A DNA stretch of 64,000 bases from an uncultured Actinomycetes bacterium (lineage in GTDB: Bacteria > Actinomycetota > Actinomycetes > Streptosporangiales > Streptosporangiaceae), in assembly GCA_963808295.1 (NCBI GenBank), contig CAWEFP010000022.1, forward strand, positions 111,464 to 175,463. The letters are read 5' to 3'. The translations under genes were made by a program, and so were the position numbers. Position 1 is the first letter of the stretch. Each line of letters opens with the position of its first letter. Below, in pieces: positions 4,502 through 53,367 of the stretch. Under the pieces are notes generated by a model, which saw nothing but the letters and a program-made list of their open reading frames with translations, did no database searches and was not told where the DNA came from.

Positions 4502-5091
4502 TCGATGCCCTTCTGCCCCTTCTGGCCGCGGTCCATCGGGTGCGTGATCTTCGTCATGTCCGTGACCAGGTCGGCGTGGGCGACCAGGTCCGGGTGCGCG
4601 TCGCGGCCGGTGATCACCACGTGCTGGTTACCCGGCCGGGCGTCCAGCACGGAGATCACCTCGGCCACATCGACCCAGCCCCACTTGATCGGGTAGGTGA
4701 ACTCGTCCAGGACATAGAAACGGTAGGTCTGCGCGGCGAGATCGCGGGCCACCTGCGCCCAGCCCTCGGCCGCCTGCTCGGCGTGGCCGCCCGCCTCCCG
4801 CTGAATCCACGACCAGCCCTCGCCCATCTTGTGCCAGCTGACCGTGCCGCCCTCGCCGCTGGCGCCGAGCGTCCGCAGCGCGTGCTCCTCCCCCACCCGC
4901 CACTTGGCCGACTTGACGAACTGGAAGACCCCCACCGGCCAGCCCTGGTTCCAGGCGCGCAGCGCCATGCCGAACGCGGCGGTGGACTTGCCCTTGCCGG
5001 TCCCGGTGTGCACGACGACCAGCGGCCGGGCGCGCCGCGCGCGCGTCGTGAGCCCGTCGTCCGGCACGCTGGCCGGCTGCCCCTTGGGCAT
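4495..5091 (-). CDS. cobO: cob(I)yrinic acid a,c-diamide adenosyltransferase
   Basis: 198 aa: LVVVHTGTGKGKSTAAFGMALRAWNQGWPVGVFQFVKSAKWRVGEE...YVLDEFTYPIKWGWVD...VVITGRDAHPDL, the CobO/BtuR family pattern. Confidence 0.9.
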   Translation of the reverse strand: MPKGQPASVPDDGLTTRARRARPLVVVHTGTGKGKSTAAFGMALRAWNQGWPVGVFQFVKSAKWRVGEEHALRTLGASGEGGTVSWHKMGEGWSWIQREAGGHAEQAAEGWAQVARDLAAQTYRFYVLDEFTYPIKWGWVDVAEVISVLDARPGNQHVVITGRDAHPDLVAHADLVTDMTKITHPMDRGQKGQKGIEW

Positions 5092-5870
5092 CAGGCGGCC
5101 ATTCCGCGCACGGCGCGCACGATCCCGGCGAGCGTCCCGGCCCCGGCCGCGGCCAGGTCGTCCAGGCTGACCAGGGCGGCGCCCAGCCGGCCGGCGAGCG
5201 CCCCGGCCAGACCCAGCCGGATCGGCCCGGTCTCGCAGTCCACCACCACGGCCGCCACCCCGGCCAGCAGGGCGGTAGCCCGGGCCAGGTCGGCGTCGCC
5301 GCCGTGGGTGGCGCGGCCGTCGGTGACGATCACCAGCAGCGGGCGCCGGGCGGGGTCGCGGATCTTCTCGGCGGCGAGCACCTCGGCGGACCGGGCCAGG
5401 CCCGCTGCCAGCGGGGTGCGCCCGCCGGTGGCCAGCGTGGCCAGCCGCCGGGCGCCCGCCTCCACCGACGACGTGGGCGGCAGCACCAGCTCGGCGCCGT
5501 CCCCGCGGAAGGTGACCAGCCCGACCTTGTCCCGCCGCTGGTACGCGTCGAGCAGCAGCGAGAGCACTGCGCCCTTGGCCGCGCGCATCCGCGGCCGCGC
5601 CGCCATCGAGCCGCTGGCGTCCACGGTGAACAGCACCAGGTTGCCCTCACGGCCGACATGGACGGCCTCGCGCAGGTCGTTCGGGGCCAGGAGGAAGCCG
5701 GGCTGCGTGGTGCCGGCCCGCCGCTTGCGTTCCGGCTGGGACGGGGCCGCCGCCCGGAGCGTGGCCGGAAGGTGCACCGCGGTAAGCCGGCCGGACGGCG
5801 GCCGCGCGCCGACGGTCCGGCCCTGCGGGGTGTAGGCGGGCGACCGGCGGCCCAGCGCCCCGGCGCCCAT
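5091..5870 (-). CDS. ChlD-like vWA domain of cobalt chelatase, probably the C-terminal half of a fused ChlI/ChlD protein
   Basis: NLVLFTVDASGSMAARPRMRAAKGAVLSLLLDAYQRRDKVGLVTFRG...GGRTPLAAGL...LLVIVTDGRAT carries the vWA MIDAS pattern. It lies 12 nt after the chlI-like ORF, in another frame. Confidence 0.75.
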   Translation of the reverse strand: MGAGALGRRSPAYTPQGRTVGARPPSGRLTAVHLPATLRAAAPSQPERKRRAGTTQPGFLLAPNDLREAVHVGREGNLVLFTVDASGSMAARPRMRAAKGAVLSLLLDAYQRRDKVGLVTFRGDGAELVLPPTSSVEAGARRLATLATGGRTPLAAGLARSAEVLAAEKIRDPARRPLLVIVTDGRATHGGDADLARATALLAGVAAVVVDCETGPIRLGLAGALAGRLGAALVSLDDLAAAGAGTLAGIVRAVRGMAA

Positions 5871-5881
5871 CCCGGGGACGG

Positions 5882-7246
5882 TCAGCAGCCGGGCCCGGAA
5901 CGGCGGCGGCGCCGGAACGGGGTCCGGTCCTGCGGGCGGCGGGCCCCCGGCACAGGCCCGTTCGGCATCGTGATCTGCGGCCCGCTGGGCCGCGGCGGGT
6001 TCCGGCGCGGGACCCGGGCCCGCAGGGCCCTGGCCGGCGGGGCCCTGGCCGCGGCGTGCGCGGCCGGGCCGGGCGCACGGCCGGAGGGCGGCGGCCCGCC
6101 GGGCTGCGGCGGGTCCGGCTGGTCGGGGGGCTCAGGCGAGTCCGGGCCGGACGGGTCAGGGGGGGCCGGCGGGCCCGGCGGCGGCTGGCTGAGCGCGTCC
6201 TCGAGCTCCTGCTCGTCCAGGCCCGGGGCGTCGAACGGGTCGCGGCGGCGGCGGTGCGGCAGCGCCAGCCGGGCCGCCTGGCGGATGTCGTCCACGGTCA
6301 CCTCGCCGCGGCCGTGCCAGGCCGCCAGCGCGATCGCCGCGCGCGCGGTGACCAGGTCGGCGCGCATGCCGTCGACCCCGAACCGGCCGCACACCGCGCA
6401 GATCTGCCGCAGCGCGGCGTCGGGCAGCACGACGTGCGGCAGCCGGGCGCGCGCGGCGGCCACGGCGGCGGCGATCCGGCGGGAATCGGCGGCGAAACGG
6501 GCCGCGAAACCGGCCGGGTCCGCCTCGAAGGCGAGCCGGCGGCGGACGACCTCGGCGCGCTCGTCCGGATCGCGGCTGGCCGCCACCTCCACGGTCAGAC
6601 CGAACCGGTCGAGCAGCTGCGGCCTCAGCTCGCCTTCCTCCGGGTTCATCGTGCCGACGAGCAGGAAACGCGCGGCGTGCCGGACCGAGACCCCCTCGCG
6701 CTCGACGTAGCTGACCCCGAGCGCCGCCGCGTCGAGCAGCAGGTCGACGAGATGGTCGTGCAGCAGGTTCACCTCGTCCACGTACAGCAGGCCGCGGTGC
6801 GCCGCGGCGAGCACGCCCGGCTCGTAGGCGGTGACGCCCTCGGACAGCGCGCGCTCGATGTCCAGCGAGCCGACCAGGCGGTCCTCGGTGGCGCCCACGG
6901 GCAGCTCCGCGAGCGTGGCCCGCCGGGCCTGCTCCGGCGCGCCGGGCGGGTGCGGGCCGTCCGGGCAGGCCGGGTCGGGCGCGGCCGGATCACAGGAGAA
7001 CCGGCAGCCCCGAACGACACGCACCGGGGGCAGCAGCTCGCCGAGGCCGCGGACGACGGTCGACTTCGCGGTGCCCTTCTCGCCGCGCACCAGCACCCCG
7101 CCGATCGCGGCCGAGACCGCGTTGAGCAGCAGCGCGAGCTTCAGATCCGGCATGCCGACGATCGCGGCGAAGGGATACAGCGGCGCATGGGTGCCGCCGC
7201 GCACCGCGTGCCGCTCGTCGCCGGACGTTACGCCGCTGGCTGTCAT
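5882..7246 (-). CDS. ChlI-like AAA+ ATPase of cobalt chelatase with a Pro-rich linker tail
   Basis: [40 protein letters not shown]...[26 protein letters not shown]...[24 protein letters not shown], followed by a [33 protein letters not shown] linker. Confidence 0.8.
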
Positions 7247-7261: not shown

Positions 7262-7470
7262 CCGGGTCTTCGCGCCCGTAGCCGGTCATACCGGCGGCCG
7301 GAGTCTCCTGGCTCCCGGATCGGTGCTCGCCCTCGCCTTCCCGCCGCGGTGGCGGCGGTGGCCTCGATGAGGGGTTACTCCCCGGTTACAGTTGCGCGAC
7401 AGCCCCGGATTCGCACCGGAGTTCCTCTGCATACCGCCTCGGCCCAGCATGACACATTTACCGAGGTGCC
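7262..7470 (-). promoter_or_regulatory. cobalamin (B12) riboswitch leader of the chlI-cobO-cobB-cobI-cobM-cbiD operon
   Basis: The minus-strand RNA contains AGGAACUCCGGUGCGAAUCCGGGGCUGUCGCGCAACUGUAA (the GGUG..AA..CC / CGCAACUGU core). A B12-box-like GGGAGCCAGGAGACUCCGGCC follows, just upstream of the ATG at 7246. Confidence 0.7.
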
Positions 7471-7679: not shown

Positions 7680-8756
7680 ATGGGGAACGATTTCCGCTCC
7701 CGGATACCGGCAACGGCGGGTCGTGTACTGGTGACGGGTGGCTCCGGGTTCATCGGCCGGCGGCTGGTGGCGGCGCTGGTGGGCGGCGGCGCCGAGGTGA
7801 CGGTGGCCGACCTCAAGCCCTTCCCCGGCTCGCCCGGCGGCCCGGTGCAGGCCATCGTCGGTGACCTGTACGACCCGGACGTCGCGGGCCAGGCGGTTCA
7901 GCCCGGGACGGACACGATCATCCACCTCGCGGCGCGGACCTCGGTCCTGGAGTCGGTCAAGGATCCCGAGACCACCTACCGGAACAACGTCGCGGTGACG
8001 GCCGGCCTCCTGGAGCTGGCCCGGCAGCGCGGCGTGCGGACGTTCCTGTTCGCATCCACCAACGCCGTCGTCGGCAACGTCGGCGGGGCGGTCATCACCG
8101 AGCAGGCCCCGCTGCGGCCGCTCACCCCGTACGGCGCGACCAAGGCCGCCTCCGAGATGCTGATCAACTGCTACGCGGCGTCCTACGGGGTCCGGGGTGT
8201 CTCGCTCCGGTTCTCCAACGTCTACGGGCCCGGGATGCAGCACAAGGACAGCTTCATCCCGCGGCTGATGCGCGCCGCGCGCGACGGCACCGGCGTCAAG
8301 GTCCGCGGGGACGGCACCATGATCCGCGACGTGATCCAGGTCGACGACGTCCTGGCCGGGATCTTCGCCGCGTGGCGCTCCGGCCACACCGGCCCGGTCA
8401 TCCTGGGTTCCGGGCAGTCCGTCACGGTGAACGACATGGTGGCGACCGCGCGCCGGGTCACCGGCGTGGCGATCCCGGCCGAGAACGCCCCGATCGCCCA
8501 GGGCGAGATGCCCGCGGTCAAGCTGGACATCTCCACCGCGCGCGGGCTGGGTTACGCGCCGACCTACGACCTCGAAACGGGCATGGCGACGGTGTGGCCC
8601 GATTTCGCGCCCGAGGGCGCGCTGGCCGCGGCGGGCCTGGGGCCGGCGGGGGCCCGGCGGCCCGGGACTCGGCGGCGCTGGCTGCGGAGGGCGTGCGATG
8701 AGCCCGGGCATATCGGCTGCGTACGCCGCGTCCGCTGGCGACGTGGCCGTCGATGA
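7680..8756 (+). CDS. NAD-dependent epimerase/dehydratase (extended SDR)
   Basis: VLVTGGSGFIGRRLV Rossmann motif and PYGATKAASE (YxxxK). The Arg-rich last ~45 aa look like run-on sequence. Confidence 0.8.
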   Translation: MGNDFRSRIPATAGRVLVTGGSGFIGRRLVAALVGGGAEVTVADLKPFPGSPGGPVQAIVGDLYDPDVAGQAVQPGTDTIIHLAARTSVLESVKDPETTYRNNVAVTAGLLELARQRGVRTFLFASTNAVVGNVGGAVITEQAPLRPLTPYGATKAASEMLINCYAASYGVRGVSLRFSNVYGPGMQHKDSFIPRLMRAARDGTGVKVRGDGTMIRDVIQVDDVLAGIFAAWRSGHTGPVILGSGQSVTVNDMVATARRVTGVAIPAENAPIAQGEMPAVKLDISTARGLGYAPTYDLETGMATVWPDFAPEGALAAAGLGPAGARRPGTRRRWLRRACDEPGHIGCVRRVRWRRGRR

Positions 8757-9702
8757 CGCCGCGATCCGCGTCATGGCCGGCCGGTACGGCGACCGGGTGC
8801 GGCAGCTGCCGCCGGTCGCGCTGGTGATCGCCGCCTACAACGAGGAGGGCGCGGTCGGGCCGGTCATCCGGAACCTTCCGGCGCGGGTGTGCGGGCTGGA
8901 CACCGCGACGATCGTCGTGGCCGACGGCTGCGCCGACGCCACCGCCAAGGAGGCGGAGGCGGCCGGGGCGCTGGTCGCGGACGTCCCGGTCAACCGGGGC
9001 CAGGGGGCCGCGCTGCGGCTCGGGTACCGGATCGCCCGGGACGGCGGCGCGCAGTACATCGTGACCACGGACGCGGACGGCCAGTACAACCCGGCCGAGA
9101 TCGAGGGGCTGCTCCGGCCGGTCGTGGCCGGGGAAGCCGACTTCGTGACCGGCTCGCGCCGGCTGGGCAGCGAGGAGACCAAGGACCCGATCCGCCAGGC
9201 GGGAGTCCGGTTCTTCGCCGCCACCATCAGCCTGCTGACCGGCCAGAAGGTCACCGACACCACGTTCGGGCTGCGGGCCATGCGGGCGGAGGTCACCGCG
9301 GCGGTGCAGCTGTCGCAGCCGCAGTATCAGGCCTCAGAACTGCTGATCGGCGTCATCACCCACGGCTACAAGGTGGCCGAGATCCCCGCCACCATCCACA
9401 AGCGCCGCGTCGGTGAGAGCAAGAAGGGCCAGAACCCCTTCTACCGCCTGCACATCCCCGGCGTGAACAACCTCTTCTACGGCCTGCGCTTCAGCCGGGT
9501 GGTCTTCGGGACCTGGTGGCGCGAGCGTCAGCGGAGATCGGGGCTCGCGTCGGCGTCACCCCGGTCGGCGCAGACCGGGACCGCGGAGTCGGCGGCCATG
9601 ACGAACGGCTCGTCGCCGGCCGGGCCCCCCGCCGCCGCACTGGATGAGCTGATGGGCGGGCCGGACTCGCGCGGGGACCGCCGGTCGGCGAAGAGGACGT
9701 AG
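8698..9702 (+). CDS. family 2 glycosyltransferase (polyprenyl-phosphate sugar synthase / GtrB-like)
   Basis: VALVIAAYNEEGAVGPVIRNL...IVVADGCADAT...YIVTTDADGQYNPAEI...FVTGSRRLG...TFGLRAM. An alternative ATG at about 8773 follows the epimerase stop. The 3' end overlaps the convergent gtrA-like gene. Confidence 0.8.
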   Translation: MSPGISAAYAASAGDVAVDDAAIRVMAGRYGDRVRQLPPVALVIAAYNEEGAVGPVIRNLPARVCGLDTATIVVADGCADATAKEAEAAGALVADVPVNRGQGAALRLGYRIARDGGAQYIVTTDADGQYNPAEIEGLLRPVVAGEADFVTGSRRLGSEETKDPIRQAGVRFFAATISLLTGQKVTDTTFGLRAMRAEVTAAVQLSQPQYQASELLIGVITHGYKVAEIPATIHKRRVGESKKGQNPFYRLHIPGVNNLFYGLRFSRVVFGTWWRERQRRSGLASASPRSAQTGTAESAAMTNGSSPAGPPAAALDELMGGPDSRGDRRSAKRT

Positions 9703-10142
9703 TGGAAGATCACGAAGCGCCCCAGGAAGGTGAGGCAGTTGGCGGCGAAGTACGTGCCGTCGGTCAGCAGCACCCGCCGGATGCCGTCCACCTCGACCGC
9801 CTCGGCCAGCGCGACGCCCAGCTTCGCGGCCAGGCCGAGGATGATCCACGCACCGATGGAGACCAGCCAGAACGGCAGGGTTTCCGTCAGCAGCTGCGGC
9901 TTACCCTTGCGTTCCCACGCCCAGCGGCTCAGTACGTAGCTCACCGCCGCACCGATGATCGCCGCCAGGCCGCCGGAAATTCCAGCCGTCATGTTCGCCG
10001 GGCCGATGAAGATGCTCAGCGCCACCTGGCTGGCTACCACGGAGGCCACGGCCACCAGGGTGAACCGCGTGAAACGGACACCGACGTTGGTGCGTGCCTT
10101 GCGGATCAGCGCGGCGCCGATCCGGCTCGATGCGAGTGCCAT
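9528..10142 (-). CDS. GtrA-family membrane protein
   Basis: RFTRFTLVAVASVVASQVALSIFIG...GGLAAIIGAAVSYVLSRWAWERK...FWLVSIGAWIILG...ANCLTFLGRFVIFHYVLF is a four-helix GtrA pattern. The non-membrane tail may be run-on sequence. Confidence 0.75.
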   Translation of the reverse strand: MALASSRIGAALIRKARTNVGVRFTRFTLVAVASVVASQVALSIFIGPANMTAGISGGLAAIIGAAVSYVLSRWAWERKGKPQLLTETLPFWLVSIGAWIILGLAAKLGVALAEAVEVDGIRRVLLTDGTYFAANCLTFLGRFVIFHYVLFADRRSPRESGPPISSSSAAAGGPAGDEPFVMAADSAVPVCADRGDADASPDLR

Positions 10143-10443
10143 TGAAGTCCTAGGTTACGTGACCGACGATAAAGGGCTACCGACGAGGTCCCGGAGAGCA
10201 GGTATAAAGTGCCGACGCCGCAGGCCACAGCGCCCGGGTGGGCCGTGTGTTGTGCCGACCGGTCTCCCGGCCGCACTGCAGCACGCTACCGTGTCGCAAC
10301 AGCGAGCGCAGCCAATGCGGGCTCCAGATGAGCTGGGAAAACGCTGAGTGAAGCGGGAAAGCGCGTCGCCGGTACCAAACGACCGGCCAGGGCAGACACA
10401 CAACCGAAAGCGACACTACGATCCCAAGGCAGGAAAACCGAGT

Positions 10444-11595
10444 ATGAAGATTTTGGTGTTGGGCGGGGATGGGTACCTCGGCTGGCCGACGGCGCTGCAT
10501 CTGTCGCAGGCGGGTCATGAGGTGGCGGTGGCCGATAATTTCGTGCGCCGGCATTATGACAATGAGCTCGGGGTCGAGTCCCTGGTGCCGATCGAGCCGC
10601 TGCAGACCCGGATCGCGGTGTGGAAGGAGCTGACCGGCAAGAGCCTCGGGTGTTACATCGGGGACCTGACCGACGCGATCTTCACCTACCACATCATCGA
10701 GGACTTCGCCCCGGACGCGGTGGTGCACTTCGCCGAGCAGCGGGCGGCGCCGTATTCGATGATCGACCGGGCGCACGCGGTCTACACCCAGCAGAACAAC
10801 GTGGTCGGGAACCTGAACCTGCTGTTCGCGATCGCGGAGATCAACCCGGAGATCCACCTGGTCAAGCTGGGCACAATGGGCGAGTACGGCACCCCGAACA
10901 TCGACATCGAGGAAGGCTGGCTGGAGGTCGAGCACAAGGGCCGCACCGACCGGGTGATGTTCCCCAAGCGGCCGGGGTCGTTCTATCACCTGTCGAAGGT
11001 GCACGACAGCCACAACATCGAGTTCGCGTGCCGGATCTGGAACCTGCGCGCCACCGACCTGAACCAGGGCGTGGTCTACGGCCAGCAGACCCCCGAGACC
11101 GCCCGTGACGAGCGGCTGGCGACCCGGTTCGACTACGACGCGGTGTTCGGCACCGTGCTGAACCGGTTCGTGATCCAGTCGGTCATCGGGCACCCGCTGA
11201 CCGTCTACGGCACCGGCGGGCAGACCCGCGGCATGATCGACATCCGCGACACCGTCCGCTGCGTCCAGCTCGCGTGCGAGAACCCCGCCAACCGCGGCGA
11301 GTTCCGGGTGTTCAACCAGATCACCGAATGGAAATCGGTCAAGGACGTCGCCGAGACCATCGCGGCCGTCAGCCCCGAAGACGTGACGATCGAGTACATC
11401 GACAACCCCCGGGTGGAGCTGGCCGACCACTACTACAAGGTCACCCACACCAAGCTGATCGAGCTCGGCCTGCAGCCGCATCTGCTGTCCGACACCCTGA
11501 TCGAGTCCCTCTTCGAAATCACCAAACGGTACGCCCACCGCGTCCGCCCCGAAGCCCTCCTGCCCACCGTCAACTGGCGCAGCCCGAAGGCCTGA
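10444..11595 (+). CDS. sqdB: UDP-sulfoquinovose synthase (SQD1/SqdB/Agl3 family)
   Basis: From the ATG at 10444: MKILVLGGDGYLGWPTALHLS...VHFAEQRAAPYSMIDRAHAVYTQQNNVVGNLNLLFAI...HLVKLGTMGEYGTPNIDIEEGW...SFYHLSKVHDSHNI...ATDLNQGVVYG...DYDAVFGTVLNRF...GHPLTVYGTGGQTRG.IDIRDTV...GEFRVFNQ.TE. It is collinear with my recollection of plant SQD1 along the full length. Confidence 0.85.
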   Translation: MKILVLGGDGYLGWPTALHLSQAGHEVAVADNFVRRHYDNELGVESLVPIEPLQTRIAVWKELTGKSLGCYIGDLTDAIFTYHIIEDFAPDAVVHFAEQRAAPYSMIDRAHAVYTQQNNVVGNLNLLFAIAEINPEIHLVKLGTMGEYGTPNIDIEEGWLEVEHKGRTDRVMFPKRPGSFYHLSKVHDSHNIEFACRIWNLRATDLNQGVVYGQQTPETARDERLATRFDYDAVFGTVLNRFVIQSVIGHPLTVYGTGGQTRGMIDIRDTVRCVQLACENPANRGEFRVFNQITEWKSVKDVAETIAAVSPEDVTIEYIDNPRVELADHYYKVTHTKLIELGLQPHLLSDTLIESLFEITKRYAHRVRPEALLPTVNWRSPKA

Positions 11596-11679
11596 TCCTG
11601 ACGCTTCCTGCGCGGGCGTTAGAGGTGGCGACCGGGCGCCGGGCGGCGATGCCGTCCGGCGCCCGGTCTGCTTTTGCGC

Positions 11680-11753: not shown

Positions 11754-12569
11754 TCAGGCGGCGAGGCCGATCAGCTGGCCCAGGTCGGCGACGGCACGGT
11801 CGAAATACGCGGCGGTATCGGTGACGACGTTGTTGAACTGGCCGAACAGCTCGAAGCTGATGACCCCGAATACTCCGGCCCAGGCCGTCAGCGCCCCGAC
11901 CGCGGTCTCGTCGCTGACCCCCGGCAGGACGCTGTCCCGGAGCCGCCGGCGTCCTCGGACAGCGCGTTCGGCATCGGCGGGTTGCCGCGGCGCCGGGCAC
12001 GAGTTCGCGCGTTCGCCGGGCACGAGTTCGCTGTGCTCGCGTTCGCTGTGCTCGCGTTCGCCGTGCTCGCGTTCGCCGGGCAGGAGTTCGCCGGGCTCGC
12101 GTTCCCCGGGCGCGAGTTCGCCGGCCGCGTGGGCGTCGCTGATCAGCCGGCCGAAGACGGCGGCGGACCGGGCCGCGGGGCCGATAGTGTCCGGCGGCGC
12201 CTGGTACCCGGGCACGGGCGAACCGTAGATCAGCGCGTACTCGTGCGGGTGCGCGAGCGCCCAGGCCCGGGCGGCCCGGCACGCCGCCCGCCACCGGCCC
12301 GGGTAGTCGTCCCGCCGGCACTTTGCGTCGGCGTCCTCGACGGCCTGGCCGATGGCGTTGTAGCCGTCGATGATCAGCGCGGTCAGCAGCTCGTCACGGC
12401 TGGCGAAATACCGGTAGATCGCGGAGGAGACCATGCCCATGTCCCGGGCCACGGCCCGAAGCGACAGGGCGGCGGCACCATCCGCCGCGAGCTGGGTGCG
12501 GGCGATATCCGTGATCTCGCGGGTAATCTCCGCGCGGACCCGTTCCCGCGCCGTCCTGCGTGCCGGCAC
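11754..12569 (-). CDS. TetR/AcrR family regulator with an internal 15-bp repeat insertion
   Basis: The N-terminal HTH reads ITDIARTQLAADGAAALSLRAVARDMGMVSSAIYRYFASRDELLTALI. The C-terminal domain is interrupted by GEREPGELLPGEREHGEREHSEREHSELVPGE. Confidence 0.8.
   Translation of the reverse strand: MPARRTARERVRAEITREITDIARTQLAADGAAALSLRAVARDMGMVSSAIYRYFASRDELLTALIIDGYNAIGQAVEDADAKCRRDDYPGRWRAACRAARAWALAHPHEYALIYGSPVPGYQAPPDTIGPAARSAAVFGRLISDAHAAGELAPGEREPGELLPGEREHGEREHSEREHSELVPGERANSCPAPRQPADAERAVRGRRRLRDSVLPGVSDETAVGALTAWAGVFGVISFELFGQFNNVVTDTAAYFDRAVADLGQLIGLAA
11995..12125. repeat. 15-bp tandem repeat (about 8 units) inside the TetR gene
   Basis: ctgtgctcgcgttcg / ccgtgctcgcgttcg / ccgggcaggagttcg units in a strict 15-nt register. 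Confidence 0.85.
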
Positions 12570-23709: not shown

Positions 23710-26700
23710 TTAACCGCCTGCCTCCAGGTCACCCTCCAGGTCCAGGAAGACCTGCCGGAGCTGGTCCAGCGTCTTCGGATCCGGCTCCGCCCACATGCCT
23801 CGCTGGGCCGCCTCCAGCAGACGTTCCGTGATGCCCCGCAGCGCCCAGGGGTTGGATTTTTCCATAAACGCGCGGTTCTCCGGGTCGAACACGTAGGCGG
23901 CGGCGAGCCGCTCATACATCCAGTCCGCCACGACGTGCGCGGTCGCGTCGTACCCGAACAGGTAGTCCACCGTCGCGGCCAGCTCAAACGCGCCCTTGTA
24001 GCCGTGCCTGCGCATCGCCGCGATCCACCGTGGATTGACCACCCGGGAACGGAACACCCGGCGTGTCTCCTCGGCCAGCGTGCGGGTCTTGACCGCATCG
24101 GGGGTGGCCGAATCGCCGATATAGGCGGCCGGGCTGCGCCCGGTCAGCGACCGGACCATGGCCACCATGCCGCCGTGGTACTGGAAGTAGTCGTCGGAGT
24201 CGGCGATGTCGTGCTCGCGGGTGTCGGCGTTCTTGGCCGCCACCGCGATCCGGGCGAACGCGGTCTCCATGTCGGTCCGCGCGGGGGCACCGTCGAGGTC
24301 GCGGCCGTACGCGTAGCCGCCCCAGACCGCGTAGACCTCGGCGAGGTCGGCGTCGTCGCGCCAGTTCCGCGCGTCGATCAGCGGGAGCAGGCCCGCCCCG
24401 TAGGCGCCCGGCTTCGAGCCGAAGATCCGGGTCGTCGCGCGGCGCCAGTCCCCGTGCGCGGCCTGGTCGGCGGTGGCGTGCGCGCGCAGGTAGTTCACCT
24501 CGGCGGGCTCGTCCAGCGCCGCGACCGCGGCGATCGCGTCGTCCAGCAGCGCGATGACGTGCGGGAACGCGTCACGGAAGAAGCCGGAGATGCGCACGGT
24601 GACGTCGATCCGCGGCCGTCCCAGCTCCTGCGCCGGGACGACCGCAAAGCCGGTGACCCGGCGCGAGACCTCGTCCCAGACCGGGCGGCACCCGATCAGG
24701 GCGAGGACTTCGGCGATATCGTCACCCTGGGTGCGCATCGCCGAGGTGCCCCAGACGGTCAGGCCGATGCAGCGCGGGTAGCTGCCCTCGTCCGCGAGAT
24801 GCCGGGCCAGCAGCGATTCGGCCAGCGCCGCCCCGGTGTCCCAGGAGTTCGGCGACGGGATGGCCTTGGGGTCGACCGAGTAGAAGTTCCGCCCGGTCGG
24901 CAGGACGTTGACCAGCCCGCGGGTGGGTGACCCGGACGGCCCGGCGGGGATGTACCCGCCGGACAGCGCGCGCAGCACCGCACCGATCTCCCCGGTCGTC
25001 GCGGCCAGGCGCGGCACCACTTCGGCACACGCGAACTGCAGAACCCGCGCCACCGCGGCCGGCTCCGCCCCTCATGCCGAACGGGCCATGGCGCTCCTTC
25101 TCCCCCGTCCGGGGCATTCCCGGCGAGGGGAAGGGCGGCGGGAGCGTCACCGGGGGCCATTGAGGTGGCGGGAGCGAAGTCGTCGGCGGGAGTCCGGGAC
25201 GTGGCGGCGGGAGTGGCGGGAGCTCCGCGGAGAGGTTGTGGCGGCGGGAGTTCCGGGAAGTTCTGTGGCGGCGGGACGAAGTTCTGTGGCGGCGGCGGCC
25301 GGGGGCGGTGGGCGGGCCTCCTCGGCGAGCACGGTGGCGGCGACGCTCGGGCGCGCGGGCGGCGTCCCAGTTGGTGGCGGCCACGGCCTCGACGAGGGCG
25401 CGGGCGGTGCGCTCGTAGCGGTCGGTCTCGGTGCGGGACGCGTCGTCGCGGCCCTCGGCCAGCCCGAGCGCGGCGCGCAGCCCCGGCAGGGCGCCCCAGC
25501 GGGCGCTCCACAACTGCGCGGAACGCAGGATGACCAGGACCAGGTTGGTGAGCGCTTCCCCGGTGGGCGCCTCGCCGAGGATGTGCAGGCCGTCCCGGAT
25601 CGCGGCGTCCTTGACCTCGCAGAGATAGCCGTCGATGTGCAGCACGAACTCGTCGAACTCGGCCGCGCCCGGCTCGGCCGGCACGTCCAGGTCGTGGTGA
25701 AGCTGCGCCGCGTGCACCAGCGACCAGATCTGCGCCCGGACCGCGGGCAGCTTGCCCGGATCCAGCGCCGCGACCGTCGCGTACTCATCCAGCAGCTGTT
25801 CCAGCTTGGCGAGCTCGCCGTAGCTGTCGGCGCGTGCCATCGGCGGGACCAGGTGATCGACGATGACCGCGTGCGCGCGCCGCTTGGCCTGGGTCCCCTC
25901 CCCCGGGTCGTTGACGATGAACGGGTAGATGAGCGGGATGTCCCGCAGGACCGCGTCGGGCGCGCACTCCTGCGACAGGCCGAGGCCCTTGCCGGGCAGC
26001 CATTCCAGGGTGCCGTGCTTGCCGAGATGGATGACCGCGTCCGCGCCGAACTCCTCATCCAGCCACCGGTAGGCCGCCAGGTAGTGGTGGGACGGCGGCA
26101 GGTCCGGGTCGTGGTAGATGGCGACCGGGTTCTCGCCGAAACCGCGCGGCGGCTGGATCATCACCACCACGTGCCCGAACCGCAGGGCGGCCAGCACGAT
26201 GTCGTCGCCGTCGGTGTAGAGCTCGCCCGGCGGCTCCCCCCACTGACTGGTCAGCTTCTGCCGGGGCCCGTTCGGCAAAGAAGAGAACCACTGACGGTAC
26301 GCCGGCAGCGGGACCCGCGCCGGTGCGGCGCTGAGCTGCTCCTCGGTCAGCCATTCGGTGTCGTAGCCGCCGGCCGCGATGAGCGTGTGGATGAGCGTGT
26401 CGCCGTCGTCGGGGAAACCGTCGCCGAGGTCGTACCCGGCCTCGCGGAGGGCCTGCAGCAGGCGGACCGCGGAGGCGGGGGTGTCGAGGCCGACGGCGTT
26501 GCCGACCCGGGAATGCTTCGTTGGGTAGGAGGAAAGCATGATCGCGACGCGCTTGTCCCGGTTCGGGGTGGCGGCCAGGCGCGCGTGCCGGACGGCGATG
26601 CCCGCGAGGCGGCCGGCCCGCTCGCGGTCGGCGACGTAGACCGGGATCCCATCCGGCCCCTCCTCCTTGAAGGAGAACGGGACCGCGATCAGGCGCCCGT

Positions 26701-27649
26701 CGAACTCGGGGATGGCGACCTGCATGGCCGCGTCGATCGGGCTCAGGCCGCCGCCCGCGTCGTGCCACTGGGCGCGCGATGAGGTCAGGCAGAGGCCCTG
26801 GATGAGCGGGACGCCCAGCCCGGCGAGCGCGCCCGCGTCCCAGTCGCCGTCGGTGCCCGCGTCGGCGGCGACCGAACCCCCGGCCGCGAGGACCGTCGTG
26901 ATGATGACGCTGGCCGGGCGGAGAAGTTCGGCCAGGCCGGGATCGGCGGCCCGGAGCGAGGAGCAGTACACCGGCAGCGGTGTCGCGCCGTGCTCGGTGA
27001 TCGCCGCGCAGAGCGTGTCGACGAAACCGGTGTTGCCCGAGAGCTCGTGCGCCCGGTAGAAGATCACCGCGACCGTGGGCGGCGCCGTGCCGGGGCTGTC
27101 GCCCGCGGCGGGGCCGACCGGCGGGCGGGGGCGGGATTCGCCGGGGCGGGATTCGCCGGGGCGGGATTCGCAGGGGCGGGATTCGCAGGGGCGGGGTTCG
27201 CAGGGGCGGGGAGGCGGTGCAGGCCGTAGGCGGGGCGCGGGCTCGGGCGGGGCGAAACCCTGGCCGGTGAGCAGCACGGTGTCGGACAGGAACGCCGCGA
27301 GCTCGCGCAGGTTGGCGGGGCCCTCCTCGCGCAGGTAGCCGAGCGCCTCGGCGGCCACCCCGGCCGGGACGGTGGACAGCGCCATGAGTTCCGCGTCGGG
27401 TGCCGATTCGCCGCCGAGCGCGACCAGCGGGATCCCGGTGGCGCGCAGCGCCGCGACCCCCGCGGGCCACGCCTGGCGCCCGCCGAGCAGGCGCAGCACG
27501 ACGATGTCCGCCCCGTCCGTCAGCGCGGCGAGCGGTCCCGGCTCATCGAGCGAGATACGCACCGGGTTCGCGGCCCGGTAGCCCGCCCCCGAAGCGCGCG
27601 CGGCGAGGAGCTCGGTATCGGCGGTGGAAAGGAGCAGGATCGTGGCCAC
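23710..27649 (-). CDS. cobN: cobaltochelatase subunit CobN; interrupted by a repeat-rich segment with frame change (25053-25400) and carrying a second in-frame repeat
   Basis: From the GTG at 27649: VATILLLSTADTELLAARASGAGYRAANP...IFYRAHELSGNTGFVDTL...HLGKHGTLEWLPGKG...DPGEGTQAKRRAHAVIVDHL. The C-terminal 447 aa (ORF 23710..25053: VLQFACAEVVPRLAATTGEI...GGYIPAGPSGSPTRG...) is in another frame. Confidence 0.85.
25165..25300. repeat. degenerate gtggcggcgggag-type repeats in the cobN interruption
   Basis: gtggcgggagcgaagtcgtcggcgggagtccgggacgtggcggcgggagtggcgggagctccgc...gttctgtggcggcgggacgaagttctgtggcggcgg. Confidence 0.65.
27128..27210. repeat. 15-bp tandem repeat x5 inside cobN (CESRP/GESRP units)
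   Basis: cgggattcgccgggg x2, cgggattcgcagggg x2 and cggggttcgcagggg. The protein reads PCEPRPCESRPCESRPGESRPGESRP. Confidence 0.9.
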
Positions 27650-27899
27650 CCCCCGATCCTGCCACGGCGGCGCGAGCCATCCTCCCGCCTTCCCGCCTCC
27701 CCCGCTCCCGGCGGCCCGTGGCCGAGCGACCACGATGCCCCTGCCGGGACCCGCCCCGGTACCCGCGACGGCACCTCTGCCCTCGGGTCGGCCATCGCCG
27801 CCGTCTTCCTGCTCGGGTTCGGCCTGCGGCTGGCTCGTCCACCAAGCTGAACGCCCATCTCCGCCGACCCCATCGGGCGCTGGCCGGAGTGGCCGGGAG

Positions 27900-28397
27900 T
27901 TAGAGCACCGTGCTGCCGTACATCTCACCGAGCGGATCGGCGAGCAGTTCGATGCGCGCGCCGTCCGGGTCCCGGAAGTAGATCGACGTGCCGCTTTCCA
28001 TCTGGTAGGGGACACCGGCCGCGTCGAGCTTGCCGCGCAGGTGCCGCCACGACTCCGGGGTCACCGAAATGGCCAGGTGATGCAGGCCACCGAGGACCTC
28101 CGCGTACGGGCCCACGTCCAGGCCGGGAAAGTCGAAGAACGCGAGCAGGTTGCCGTTGCCCAGGTCGAAAAAGAAGTGGCTGGAGCCCTTGTAGTCGCGG
28201 TTCTCGATGATCTCGGTCAGCGGGAACTCCAGCAATTCCTGATAGAAGCGGATGGTCCGTTCGGGATCGGAACTGATCAGCGCGGTGTGGTGCACTCCGC
28301 GGGCACTGCTGACCGGCCGCCGGTCCATCAGGTAGGCGGCGCGGAGCCGGGATCGTTGCTCGTCGAGCGCGGCCAGGTCGGGCGGGGTGTCCGTCAT
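27900..28397 (-). CDS. VOC / glyoxalase-bleomycin-resistance-dioxygenase family protein
   Basis: From the ATG at about 28397: MTDTPPDL...GVHHTALISSDPERTIRFYQELLEFPL...GGLHHLAISV...TSIYFRDPDGARIEL. Confidence 0.8.
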   Translation of the reverse strand: MTDTPPDLAALDEQRSRLRAAYLMDRRPVSSARGVHHTALISSDPERTIRFYQELLEFPLTEIIENRDYKGSSHFFFDLGNGNLLAFFDFPGLDVGPYAEVLGGLHHLAISVTPESWRHLRGKLDAAGVPYQMESGTSIYFRDPDGARIELLADPLGEMYGSTVL

Positions 28398-37588: not shown

Positions 37589-41245
<3,657 letters not shown>

Positions 41246-41448
41246 GCGCTCCCGTCGTGTCTAGCTGTCACGCTGTTCACGCATTGCGCGCCCCACCGGC
41301 CCCGCGCGTCCCAGCAGCCCCATAGCCGGAGCGGCGGCGCGGCGGCGTACCGGCGCCGGCGTTTCCGCAGTATCTGCGGAAGAGCCGGCGCCGATCATGG
41401 CGGGAGACGCCGCGGGCGCGGGCAGCGGCCCGGCCGGACTGGGCGGGG

Positions 41449-47462: not shown

Positions 47463-48157
47463 CGCGTCCTCTCTTCCGTGCGGAACCGTGCCAGGCGAGG
47501 CACTTCCCGCTACCACGCCTGGCACGGGGTCCGGCCGCCCGAGGGGGGTCAGGCGGCCGGGGCCTTCACACATCCAGTCGAACACAGTTTCGGCTGTGTG
47601 TCCAGTCCGTTTGTACCTGCGTTCGAATGTAGCTGGGGGGTCCGACATTCCGGCCGGCCCCGCGGGCGCGGGGCGCGGGCGCGAGGCGGAGCCGGCCGGC
47701 GGGGTCAGCGGAACGGCCACGATGGCGCGGTCGTGGCCGCCATGACGTCGACGATGACGCCACCGTGGACGTGGCGAGATCCCAGGGGCGGGGATTTTCC
47801 GGGACGTTCGTCCATGGCCGAACGCGGACATGTCATGACATGGTTACGCGGTGTTTCCGGGAGTCGCCGTTCTGCCGGTTACGCCTGGTCCGGGGGATGT
47901 GCGCCCGTTCGCCGAAGATCCACGGGGAGGGCTACCACCGCGCACAGGTCGCAACTAAATGACCCGTTGCGTCGTCATTTATAGCGAAACCTCACCGGCG
48001 GTTCCCAGGGAACCCCCAGCAGGGCCACTGCCGGGACCCAGCGGGCGGCGGCCGGGGAACCGCACCGGAGGCACGGGCCGGCCGGTGAACGTTGGGCCTG
48101 AGATTGCGCGGCGGCAGCACGCGCCGAACGATCGCGACGTTGGAGGACTTATCCGGC

Positions 48158-50716: not shown

Positions 50717-50808
50717 CCGCCCGGGGACACGCACCCCCTCTCTCGCACGATCGTGACACTCCGAAGTAAATTAATTACTCAGAGTTGCAAACGGTGCGGG
50801 AGGTGACG

Positions 50809-53292: not shown

Positions 53293-53367
53293 GAGGGTTC
53301 CAGGGGTCGTCCCCCTCGGCCAGCAATCGGGGGTTCCAGGGGTCGTCCCCCTGAGCCAGCACTGGGG
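53293..53367. repeat. 37-bp hairpin-containing repeat x2 directly after the GH2 stop
   Basis: GGGTTCCAGGGGTCGTCCCCCTCGGCCAGCAATCGG / GGGTTCCAGGGGTCGTCCCCCTGAGCCAGCACTGGGG. The motif is the same as in the carB insertion. Confidence 0.9.

Follow-up and report, generated by a model that had tools for sequence, protein, structure and literature searches.

The window, that is, the whole 64-kb stretch of DNA that was analysed, carries four genes between positions 7680 and 11595, all present as originally placed and backed by GC3 frame analysis and the ORF listing. Together with the neighbouring features, they are as follows.

7680..8756, + strand: GalE-like NAD-dependent sugar-nucleotide 4-epimerase, 358-aa ORF (PF01370, E 1e-52)
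8698..9702, + strand: GT2 glycosyltransferase of the polyprenyl-phosphate sugar synthase type (PF00535, NCBIfam, PDB, Foldseek)
9528..10142, - strand: divergent GtrA-family membrane protein, 204 aa (PF04138 in orthologues, hydropathy)
10143..10443, no strand: divergent intergenic region between the GtrA gene and sqdB (alignments of relatives)
10444..11595, + strand: SQD1/SqdB-type UDP-sulfoquinovose synthase, 383 aa (1qrr match, NF041015, conserved motifs)
11630..11668, + strand: terminator-like hairpin, 18-bp stem with 16 G-C pairs and a T-rich tail (consensus scan)
11754..12569, - strand: TetR-family regulator (PF00440 and PF13305)

At this locus of a soil actinobacterium, sqdB, the gene for the synthase of the plant-type sulfosugar sulfoquinovose, is closely linked to genes of the type that place a sugar onto a lipid carrier and transfer it outward, not lipid-making genes. 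Of the three neighbours, only the GtrA gene is transcribed away from sqdB. The epimerase and GT2 genes, which the earlier note had also described as divergently arranged, precede sqdB, share its strand and point towards the GtrA gene. The 3' ends of the GT2 and GtrA genes overlap by 175 bp (9528-9702), an arrangement common to many relatives.

SqdB is the sole nucleotide-sugar-forming enzyme of the conserved core. It is collinear with the SQD1 structure 1qrr over residues 2-379 (E 1e-156, 525 bits) and 59% identical to Arabidopsis SQD1 over its full length (224/378), the SQD1-specific insert included, which bears out the full-length collinearity with SQD1/SqdB claimed in the earlier note; all the motifs quoted there were found, and GGDGYLGW, GTMGEYG (T145) and YHLSK (Y182/H183/K186) are conserved. 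The GxxGxxG motif and residues T145, Y182, H183 and K186 are intact in the window protein and in 75-79 of 79 orthologues; catalytic residues and full-length architecture alike follow SQD1. These features argue against the proposal, which we regard as very improbable, that the SQD1-like protein of the actinobacterial clade adds no sulfite and acts as a UDP-glucose 4,6-dehydratase or forms a 5,6-ene, feeding another 6-modified sugar to the GT2. Such a proposal draws on the NCBIfam UDP-sulfoquinovose synthase profile NF041015, whose match (E 2e-141, 471 bits) lies below the curated cut-off of 575 bits, on the fact that SQD1-like members of this clade are known from sequence alone, and on the archaeal Agl3, which makes UDP-glucose-5,6-ene without sulfite in vitro; Agl3, however, is experimentally confirmed and only about 40% identical to SQD1, as against 59% for the window SqdB (PMC4388408).

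The locus shares this first enzyme, SqdB/SQD1, with the canonical sulfolipid operons (sqdB with sqdX, or sqdB-sqdD-sqdC). In those operons the partner is a GT4 (SqdX/SQD2) or a GT8 (SqdD) glycosyltransferase, which makes SQDG. Here, in contrast, the window and the examined neighbourhoods are free of such a partner: no GT4/GT8-type glycosyltransferase (sulfolipid synthase) came up when about 44 ORFs across the 64-kb window were scanned with Pfam, in agreement with the earlier observation that no SqdX/SQD2 or SqdD is adjacent, and none appears in the gene tables of the relatives L161, L165 and L167.

PF00535 matches the GT2 (E 3.5e-17), and the DXD motif lies within TTDADGQY. Its best NCBIfam matches are the dolichyl-phosphate hexose transferase, PpgS and AglJ profiles (about 80-94 bits), followed by ArnC (41 bits), all of them under the equivalog cut-offs and far under for every named one. 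By sequence, the best solved structures are DPMS (5mlz) and ArnC, and a Foldseek search, for which the query was a low-confidence model, returned ArnC, DPMS, GpgS and GtrB in the top ranks. As judged from such comparisons, its closest characterised relatives are all polyprenyl- or dolichyl-phosphate glycosyltransferases. The previous label of GtrB-like GT2 holds for the polyprenyl-phosphate type and not for the architecture, which is PpgS/Ppm1-like: no transmembrane segment was found in the GT2 (maximum 19-residue Kyte-Doolittle hydropathy 1.15), so that of the C-terminal "amphipathic or membrane segment" first described only the amphipathic helix stands, placed at residues 256-283 in the low-confidence model and amphipathic judging by sequence, and the tail is of low complexity. 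No direct sequence determinant naming the sugar transferred was found in the GT2. An enzyme without transmembrane helix, in a window without GT-C, would also fit a quite unlikely scheme in which the GT2 uses UDP-sulfoquinovose with an acceptor other than polyprenyl phosphate, the product being a new sulfoquinovosyl lipid of the membrane or, as glucosyl-3-phosphoglycerate synthase would suggest, a soluble sulfoquinovosyl compound, and the GtrA protein serving as membrane partner or exporter. GpgS structures are indeed among the top fold matches, and weak GpgS matches occur among the NCBIfam and PDB profiles, but by sequence the polyprenyl-phosphate transferases score higher, at about 94 bits, than GpgS, at 27.7 bits, and without a lipid-linked donor it is difficult to account for the constant pairing with a GtrA-family protein and for the in-frame PMT-like polytopic fusion of four genomes.

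The GtrA protein presents three hydrophobic segments above the hydropathy threshold and a fourth (about 125-151) discerned by eye. Its family assignment is upheld by its orthologues, 18 of the 19 aligned matching PF04138 (best E 2.8e-12), though the window copy alone scores 22.3 bits, below the gathering cut-off of 26.1; it may be the flippase, a membrane partner for the GT2, or both. The catalytic domain of the epimerase spans approximately residues 15-310 and is matched by the GalE profile TIGR01179 (E 3e-42, under its cut-off). Its best solved relatives are 6wj9/6wjb (E 3e-38), which we take to be a PelX-type UDP-GlcNAc 4-epimerase, and MoeE5 6kv9 (E 9e-37), presumably a UDP-GlcA 4-epimerase. 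Compared with the 97%-identical relative L167, a 1-nt deletion near 8653 shifts the last ~16 epimerase codons; the epimerase frame of close relatives stops at what corresponds to 8701 here, and its stop overlaps the start codon of the GT2 gene (ATGA in L167), which suggests coupled expression in these relatives.

The co-occurrence of sqdB, GT2 and gtrA extends well past the window. In loci chosen by sqdB, a GT2 lies within 5 kb in 62 of 64 genome loci and GtrA in 63 (59 with the window query and four more with the L077 query), and in the reverse test sqdB was present in all 34 metagenome loci chosen by GT2 similarity that had enough flank, all the loci counted being from related Actinomycetota, so that the counts are not independent events. 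The three genes are co-conserved across Streptosporangiales, Pseudonocardiales and one Acidimicrobiales MAG despite changes in gene order, and the linkage survives inversion or rearrangement in Nonomuraea, Microtetraspora, Streptosporangium and Actinomadura. The epimerase is found within 5 kb of sqdB in 50/64 loci and is missing from the other 14, where GT2, GtrA and sqdB stay.

No GT-C transferase is encoded in the 64-kb window; the search for a cognate one led to putative GT-Cs beside or fused to the cluster in relatives. A PMT-like GT-C is fused in-frame to the GT2, as one ORF, in four Pseudonocardiaceae loci (L074, L077, L079 and L080); in L078 its gene and the sqdB stop overlap, in L071 and L161 it is found 0.9-2.6 kb away from sqdB, and in one MAG it is unlinked to the cluster. 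Nonomuraea-type loci carry a GT87/PIG-M-like GT-C in the cluster, and the Acidimicrobiales MAG a DUF2079-like membrane protein. The GT-C assignments are weak profile matches (PF02366 is matched by 23 of 40 members of the PMT-like family, best E 2.7e-7), with a structure model of pLDDT 53. The usual partner of the PMT-like GT-C in Streptosporangiaceae MAGs is a GT-C of the MptA/B family, the pair lying at unrelated sites of the genome, and for this reason the PMT-like GT-C may serve a mannan pathway.

Like the window GT2, mycobacterial PpgS is devoid of transmembrane helices. In M. tuberculosis, the PpgS (Rv3631)/Rv3632/Rv3779 system decorates arabinogalactan with galactosamine; it too combines a GT2 polyprenyl-phosphate sugar synthase, a small integral membrane partner and a nearby GalE-type epimerase (Rv3634c), and on the outer side of the membrane the lipid-linked monosaccharide serves as donor for a GT-C encoded at an unlinked site (PMC3485146, PMC5389812). 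That an epimerase, a GT2 without transmembrane segments and a small membrane protein form this same mycobacterial GalNAc layout (PpgS/Rv3632/Rv3634c) is a point against a sulfosugar cargo, since a neutral or amino sugar may be carried instead. Two functions could thus lie side by side: the epimerase, GT2 and GtrA protein would form a PpgS-type system loading polyprenyl phosphate with a hexose, neutral or amino (Gal, GalNAc or Glc), for extracytoplasmic decoration, and SqdB would provide UDP-sulfoquinovose for a different glycosyltransferase of the cytoplasm, encoded at an unlinked site, which makes ordinary SQDG or a glycan assembled on the cytoplasmic side, the genes being clustered only through a common envelope product or shared regulation. 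The presence of PpgS among the best NCBIfam matches, the presumed 4-epimerase activity of the epimerase's solved relatives and the overlap of the epimerase stop with the GT2 start agree with this. We consider it unlikely nevertheless, because the GT2 scores 94 bits against a PpgS cut-off of 370 and is not a PpgS orthologue, the loci without epimerase retain the other three genes, the reverse test links GT2 to sqdB without exception, the GT-C gene of L078 overlaps the sqdB stop, and neither a GT4/GT8 nor any other candidate sulfoquinovose transferase is conserved near sqdB in the neighbourhoods examined. The hosts considered here, Streptosporangiales and Pseudonocardiales, are not arabinogalactan-containing Corynebacteriales. 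Unlike in the PpgS system, the conserved partner is an SQD1-type synthase, and it is on this ground that the cargo is taken to be a sulfonated 6-deoxyhexose rather than GalNAc.

We find it on balance probable that UDP-sulfoquinovose or its 4-epimer is loaded onto polyprenyl phosphate, flipped, and used by a GT-C to decorate an envelope polymer; both the identity of the lipid-borne sugar and the acceptor we infer. The lipid-linked sulfosugar interpretation of the earlier note finds support, in genomic context only: each computational check suggested there, on the active site, the co-conservation and the GT-Cs of relatives, favoured it. In this view the four genes would supply the cytoplasmic steps and the flipping, one half of a three-component system for extracytoplasmic glycosylation with a sulfosugar as cargo. 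Strong homology stands behind the first step of this route only, not behind the epimerase, GT2/GtrA or GT-C steps. Where present, the GalE-like epimerase would balance the UDP-Glc/UDP-Gal pool or, speculatively, convert UDP-sulfoquinovose to its C4 epimer. Going by family membership and linkage, the GT2 would load polyprenyl phosphate with the sulfosugar at the inner membrane face, and the GtrA-family protein would probably aid it and may also, or instead, flip the lipid-linked sugar. Outside the membrane, as the fusions and adjacency in relatives suggest, a GT-C would transfer the sugar from the polyprenyl phosphate to an envelope polymer, lipoglycan or protein; its gene, adjacent or fused to GT2 in relatives, would lie elsewhere in the source genome.

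GtrB has C-terminal transmembrane helices, unlike the window GT2, which is related in fold and sequence to both GtrB and ArnC. The proposed route resembles GtrA/GtrB/GtrC O-antigen glucosylation, ArnC/ArnT and CsbB/GtcA/YfhO, in which a GT2 loads polyprenyl phosphate, a GtrA-family protein has a presumed part in flipping and a GT-C passes the sugar on outside the membrane (for the general mechanism, see PMC11127046 and PMC7389260). It differs from these systems in the lack of a window-encoded GT-C and in a donor sugar that would be anionic and C-S bonded, of which no report for any system of this kind was found in the searched literature. Sulfolobus builds sulfoquinovose into a dolichol-linked oligosaccharide that is transferred by the oligosaccharyltransferase AglB, and we know of no GT2/GtrA/GT-C monosaccharide route there. 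The likeness to Sulfolobus acidocaldarius Agl3 lies in the non-lipid use of UDP-sulfoquinovose from an SQD1 homologue, on surface glycoconjugates, namely N-glycans (PMC4388408, PMC11407970). The searched literature yielded no description of such a sulfosugar glycosylation system, which we rate as a new variant on the three-component theme; if true, it suggests a bacterial cell surface decorated with a sulfonated sugar by a route so far undescribed.

Alignments of relatives reveal two conserved blocks in the region between the GtrA gene and sqdB, one with consensus GGTATACAGTACGGGAACCG, including a TAnnnT -10-like hexamer, and the other AGCACGTTACCG, as well as a Shine-Dalgarno sequence; the promoter(s) and a long leader of sqdB are probably located in 10143-10443, and neither an Rfam match nor a covariation-supported structure was found there. 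The terminator-like hairpin directly 3' of sqdB is a candidate terminator. The TetR-family protein is a possible local regulator, its belonging to the system being uncertain; its gene lies beside sqdB in the closest relatives only (L001, L003, L004, L009, L011, L071, L161, L165, L167 and L168).

The cluster that the earlier note had read, from the sequence alone, as a polyprenyl-phosphate-sulfoquinovose glycosylation system comprises four genes, whose calls are backed by third-codon-position G+C analysis and the ORF list, in a window of 66-78% G+C from a high-G+C actinobacterium. These genes, and the element that bounds them on the left, are:

7301-7427, - strand: cobalamin riboswitch (RF00174, 85 bits), upstream of a chelatase-like AAA/VWA gene and the cob operon
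7680-8756, + strand: SDR epimerase, GalE-like
8698-9702, + strand: GT2 glycosyltransferase, with its DXD motif within TTDADGQY
9528-10142, - strand: small membrane protein of the GtrA family (PF04138 via orthologues)
10444 (conserved product start)-11595, + strand: SQD1-like gene (sqdB), 383 aa

By homology, the core products are an SQD1-type synthase, a GT2 of the polyprenyl-phosphate type and a GtrA-family protein. The epimerase and GT2 genes run in the same direction, and in the relatives L167 and L168 (97-98% identical) the epimerase stop and the GT2 start overlap as ATGA; in the window a 1-nt deletion near 8653 lengthens the epimerase ORF to 8756. The GtrA gene converges on the GT2 gene, the two 3' ends sharing 175 bp (9528-9702), and a convergent overlap of 100-290 bp is found in many relatives, including rearranged Nonomuraea-type loci. 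The overlap runs through low-complexity tails, and both convergence and overlap survive rearrangement of the cluster. The sqdB and GtrA genes point away from each other, with 301 bp between them that include conserved sequence blocks, and a strong terminator-like hairpin follows sqdB at its 3' side. The cobalamin riboswitch sets the left edge of the glycosylation cluster, the unrelated cobalamin operon of the left flank (the chelatase-like AAA/VWA gene, CobQ-type amidase genes and corrin methylases) being a separate B12-regulated unit. On the right lie genes for a TetR regulator, an MFS transporter, serine hydroxymethyltransferase (SHMT) and a nucleoside hydrolase, and the remaining window is housekeeping in nature (CobN, metK, coaBC, a pyrimidine operon, two GH2 genes and MTHFR).

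The full-length collinearity of the SqdB protein with SQD1, which the earlier note had noticed by eye, is borne out by comparison with the Arabidopsis SQD1 structure 1qrr (E 1e-156; query 2-379, chain 3-383), to which the protein is 59% identical (224/378) and with which it shares the insertion, specific to SQD1, that separates the Thr and Tyr motifs. Exact-sequence look-ups with the protein in 383-aa and 415-aa versions gave no match. The protein retains GGDGYLGW (the GxxGxxG NAD site), GTMGEYG and YHLSK, and the catalytic residues on which that assignment was said to depend, Thr145, Tyr182 and Lys186, are intact together with His183; the roles of the SQD1 catalytic residues have been described (PMC4388408). 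Motifs were counted in 79 full-length orthologues (the wider set, with one partial sequence, numbers 80): YHLSK is kept in 79/79, and the catalytic Thr in 73/79 with Ser in 3/79, the search pattern having failed on the other 3. The NCBIfam model for UDP-sulfoquinovose synthase, NF041015, is matched over profile positions 1-384 (E 2e-141) with 471.3 bits, under its cut-off of 575; this shortfall is read as reflecting a strict model threshold and not another function. Since the archaeal Agl3, which has been validated by experiment, shares only about 40% identity with SQD1 (PMC4388408), and the window protein is 59% identical with intact motifs, we infer on strong homology that it makes UDP-sulfoquinovose; it is very improbable that this SQD1 homologue has another activity. 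Actinobacterial SqdB homologues, namely SACE_5690 of Saccharopolyspora erythraea, Mvan_5143 and PFREUD_00050, have been placed in a published tree (PMC4388408).

The closest named families of the GT2 in NCBIfam, every one of them a lipid-phosphate glycosyltransferase, are haloarchaeal dolichyl-phosphate hexose transferase, mycobacterial PpgS, AglJ and ArnC, and its top solved structures by sequence are DPMS and ArnC. The top fold matches are ArnC, DPMS, GpgS and GtrB, obtained with an AlphaFold model (pLDDT 60, C-terminal half poor) that backs the fold family and not an analysis of the pocket. Every named match lies under its equivalog cut-off (94.1 bits against 370 for the PpgS equivalog NF058614), so that the polyprenyl-phosphate transferase assignment holds at family level only. 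No segment of the GT2 reaches the transmembrane hydropathy threshold and the model has only a C-terminal helix (256-283), which makes the architecture PpgS/Ppm1-D2-like and not GtrB-like. Of the GtrB-like enzyme proposed at first, the polyprenyl-phosphate-type catalytic domain therefore stands, on the DXD motif and the family matches, and the C-terminal transmembrane anchoring of GtrB is given up on hydropathy. The appearance of GpgS among the fold matches would suit a GT2 that uses UDP-sulfoquinovose on a non-polyprenyl acceptor, a reading that sequence scores and the links to GtrA and to GT-C proteins (putative third-component membrane transferases) render distinctly unlikely; a GpgS-like soluble enzyme was ranked low, as the scores favour polyprenyl-phosphate transferases and the GtrA and GT-C links are present.

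The membrane protein keeps its place in the GtrA family, though the window copy scores 22.3 bits against PF04138, under the gathering score of 26.1, since 18 of 19 aligned orthologues match that profile (best E 2.8e-12). It has three hydrophobic segments above the hydropathy threshold and a fourth, at ~125-151, read by eye. The best solved relatives of the epimerase are entries 6wj9/6wjb, which we take to be the UDP-GlcNAc 4-epimerase PelX, and MoeE5, presumably a UDP-GlcA 4-epimerase.

The association of sqdB, GT2 and gtrA, on which the first proposal was built, recurs across genomes. Screening one genome for each GTDB species gave 80 loci whose SqdB is 74-94% identical, from MAGs of Streptosporangiaceae and Trebonia, from cultured genera in which the cluster is found (Nonomuraea spp., Microtetraspora, Streptosporangium, Actinomadura, Saccharopolyspora and Haloechinothrix), from other Pseudonocardiaceae and from one Acidimicrobiales MAG; in soil metagenomes, homologues of sqdB number in the thousands, as do those of the GT2. 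Of these loci, 64 extend at least 4 kb to either side of sqdB; they are phylogenetically related, so that the counts are not independent. In this set of 64, a GT2 gene lies within 5 kb of sqdB in 62, a GtrA-like gene in 59 (with four more Pseudonocardiaceae copies detected by a closer query) and an epimerase gene in 50. The order is not fixed: Nonomuraea-type clusters have sqdB, a translationally coupled SAM-methyltransferase gene and GtrA, then GT2 and epimerase genes on the opposite strand and a GT-C-like gene. That the linkage outlasts rearrangement, and is seen in no fewer than two orders, speaks for functional coupling. In the reverse direction, 80 metagenome loci were picked solely by GT2 similarity (67-86% identity), and sqdB was present in all 34 with at least 1.3 kb of downstream sequence, the others stopping at contig edges. 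Comparative genomics thus shows that the SQD1-type synthase, the GT2 and GtrA are an evolutionarily maintained unit. A PpgS-like module for a neutral or amino sugar, merely co-located with sqdB, is favoured by a layout identical to that of the mycobacterial GalNAc system, but is rather unlikely given the reverse linkage from GT2 to sqdB and the existence of loci that have no epimerase gene.

A link from this unit to a putative user of the lipid-linked sugar is provided by relatives: in several lineages, comparative genomics shows GT-C-like proteins adjoining the GT2 or fused to it. Four Pseudonocardiaceae loci (L074, L077, L079 and L080) have the GT2 as the C-terminal part of an ORF of 760-845 aa, of which the N-terminal ~500 residues, joined in frame (L077:6895-9432), form a polytopic protein with weak PMT/PMT_2 matches; this fusion is a Rosetta-stone link between the synthase of a lipid-linked sugar and its putative user. 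A free-standing PMT-like gene overlaps the sqdB stop in Haloechinothrix (L078), lies 0.9-2.6 kb from sqdB in L071 and L161, and is found on another contig (L162) of the MAG that holds L029 (assembly GCA_963822825.1); PF02366 (PMT) is matched by 23/40 members of this family, with a best E of 2.7e-7. In Streptosporangiaceae-type MAGs the PMT-like gene is always preceded by a GT-C gene of the MptA/B family, at varying genomic sites:

L161:8664-11494, MptA/B-family and PMT-like GT-C pair
L162:8644-11482, MptA/B-family and PMT-like GT-C pair
L163:6788-9518, MptA/B-family and PMT-like GT-C pair
L164:6629-9509, MptA/B-family and PMT-like GT-C pair

In L161, the flanks of which are window-like, the pair sits between the TetR and SHMT genes, where the window has its MFS gene. 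It may be speculated that the pairing hints at a mannan or lipoglycan acceptor. Other loci have other proteins in this place: one with weak GT87 and PIG-M similarity in Nonomuraea-type clusters, and a DUF2079-like membrane protein directly after sqdB in the Acidimicrobiales locus. Profile-profile comparison detected no relationship between the PMT-like and GT87-like families, and the structure model of the PMT-like protein (pLDDT 53) gives meaningless Foldseek matches, so "GT-C" is here a profile-level assignment. For the cognate transferase that the earlier note had suggested looking for, nearby or elsewhere, the candidates are GT-C-like genes near or fused to the cluster in relatives; the 64-kb window has none, as no GT-C protein was found among the ~44 ORFs scanned and searches for homologues of the relatives' GT-Cs and for MptA/B-family GT-Cs were negative. 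Homologues of the sqdB-coupled methyltransferase and of DPBB, TauE and DUF6504 proteins were likewise sought in the window, with none found. In L162, a TauE/SafE-family gene (sulfite-exporter-type) follows the PMT-like GT-C gene.

Our overall model, to which we give somewhat better than even credence, is that a polyprenyl-phosphate-linked sulfosugar is made, flipped and transferred on the outer side of the membrane by a GT-C. The donor of the GT2 would be UDP-sulfoquinovose, the sole nucleotide sugar that the conserved core is expected to make, or, in clusters with an epimerase gene, the 4-epimer of UDP-sulfoquinovose; the product would be a polyprenyl-phosphate sulfosugar. GtrA may aid its synthesis, its flipping or both, and the GT-C would then put the sulfosugar onto an extracytoplasmic acceptor. 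Among the nearest known systems, this logic is common to the GtrABC, ArnC/ArnT and CsbB/GtcA/YfhO three-component systems and to mycobacterial PpgS/Rv3632/Rv3779, where PpgS has Rv3632 as its small membrane partner (PMC3485146); the window GT2 is an orthologue neither of PpgS, whose cut-off it does not reach, nor of GtrB, given the cut-offs and its lack of transmembrane helices. The first enzyme is shared with two further close systems, the Agl3-dependent sulfoquinovose of Sulfolobus N-glycans and the canonical sqdB-sqdX/sqdD sulfolipid operons, the glycosyltransferases of which are absent here: in agreement with the first reading, Pfam finds no GT4 (SqdX/SQD2) or GT8 (SqdD) among the ~44 window ORFs, and the gene tables of L161, L165, L167 and L168 hold no GT4 or GT8 sulfolipid synthase either.

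The turnover of sulfoquinovose forms one of the major branches of organic sulfur cycling. Phototrophs, which make it as SQDG, and a few archaea, which have it in glycans, are regarded as its producers, and recent reviews name no home for this sugar other than the sulfolipid SQDG and archaeal N-glycans (PMC12890257, PMC11407970); a full-text literature search returned no lipid-phosphate-linked sulfoquinovose route described for bacteria. The chances seem evenly balanced that soil Actinomycetota (Streptosporangiales, Pseudonocardiales and some Acidimicrobiia) link sulfoquinovose, or the 4-epimer sulfofucose, to polyprenyl phosphate, and that PMT-like or other GT-Cs install it on a lipoglycan, a wall polymer or a protein outside the cytoplasm. 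If so, it would be the first non-lipid glycoconjugate of sulfoquinovose in bacteria and the first sulfosugar cargo of a three-component system, extending such glycosylation to an anionic, C-S-bonded sugar, and would suggest a phosphate-free means of giving negative charge to the envelope of these Gram-positive bacteria. It would also constitute a large, non-phototrophic and so far unrecognised soil source of sulfoquinovose, and the sugar in envelope polymers would help to account for how common sulfoglycolytic bacteria are in places away from plants. We infer the system from genomes, and it is readily testable, since the cluster is present in cultured strains.

Upstream of sqdB, the region 10143-10443 is strongly conserved (alignments A5 and A7). 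It contains a block, GGTATACAGTACGG, that includes a -10-like TAnnnT hexamer, an invariant AGCACGTTACCG, and CCGCAC/GTGCGG/CCGCAC repeats that flank the conserved blocks and could form alternative hairpins. A riboswitch or structured leader was considered and set aside; there is no Rfam match and RNAalifold gives no compensatory pairs, so no RNA structure is claimed for the leader, and an operator, a leader and an attenuator are the candidates for this element.

In comparison with close relatives, the window has several split genes: CobN lies in two overlapping ORFs (23710-28060, - strand), the carB large subunit in at least three pieces (37589-41260, - strand), and the chelatase AAA and VWA parts are separate (5091-7246, - strand), being a single 717-aa gene in L167. 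These splits and the deletion at the 3' end of the epimerase gene suggest the kind of indel error that long-read MAGs typically contain, or else genuine pseudogenisation; the disruptions spare the catalytic parts of the four cluster genes.

Further genes accompany sqdB in relatives. A class I SAM methyltransferase gene (241-244 aa) overlaps the sqdB stop in Nonomuraea-type clusters (L051:11161-11895; the same type in L044, L054, L056, L057, L060, L062, L063, L066, L069, L070 and L073), and a SAM methyltransferase gene adjoins sqdB in Haloechinothrix (L078:9064-9789); the enzyme might methylate the sulfosugar or the lipid-linked intermediate. Rv2525c-like glycoside-hydrolase-like proteins are encoded just downstream of sqdB at L028:11225-13352, L043:11161-13689, L029:11230-12900 and L050:11173-12585. 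In the window itself, a Guanidine-II (mini-ykkC) riboswitch match (53302-53354, - strand; 35.1 bits against a gathering score of 32, E 0.0026) has a GH2 gene on one side and a luciferase-like monooxygenase gene on the other. Both are + strand genes, so that the match has no obvious downstream gene on its own strand; it may be a false positive. The two GH2 glycoside hydrolase genes are tandem paralogues (48089-53289, + strand) coding for about 875 and 839 aa.
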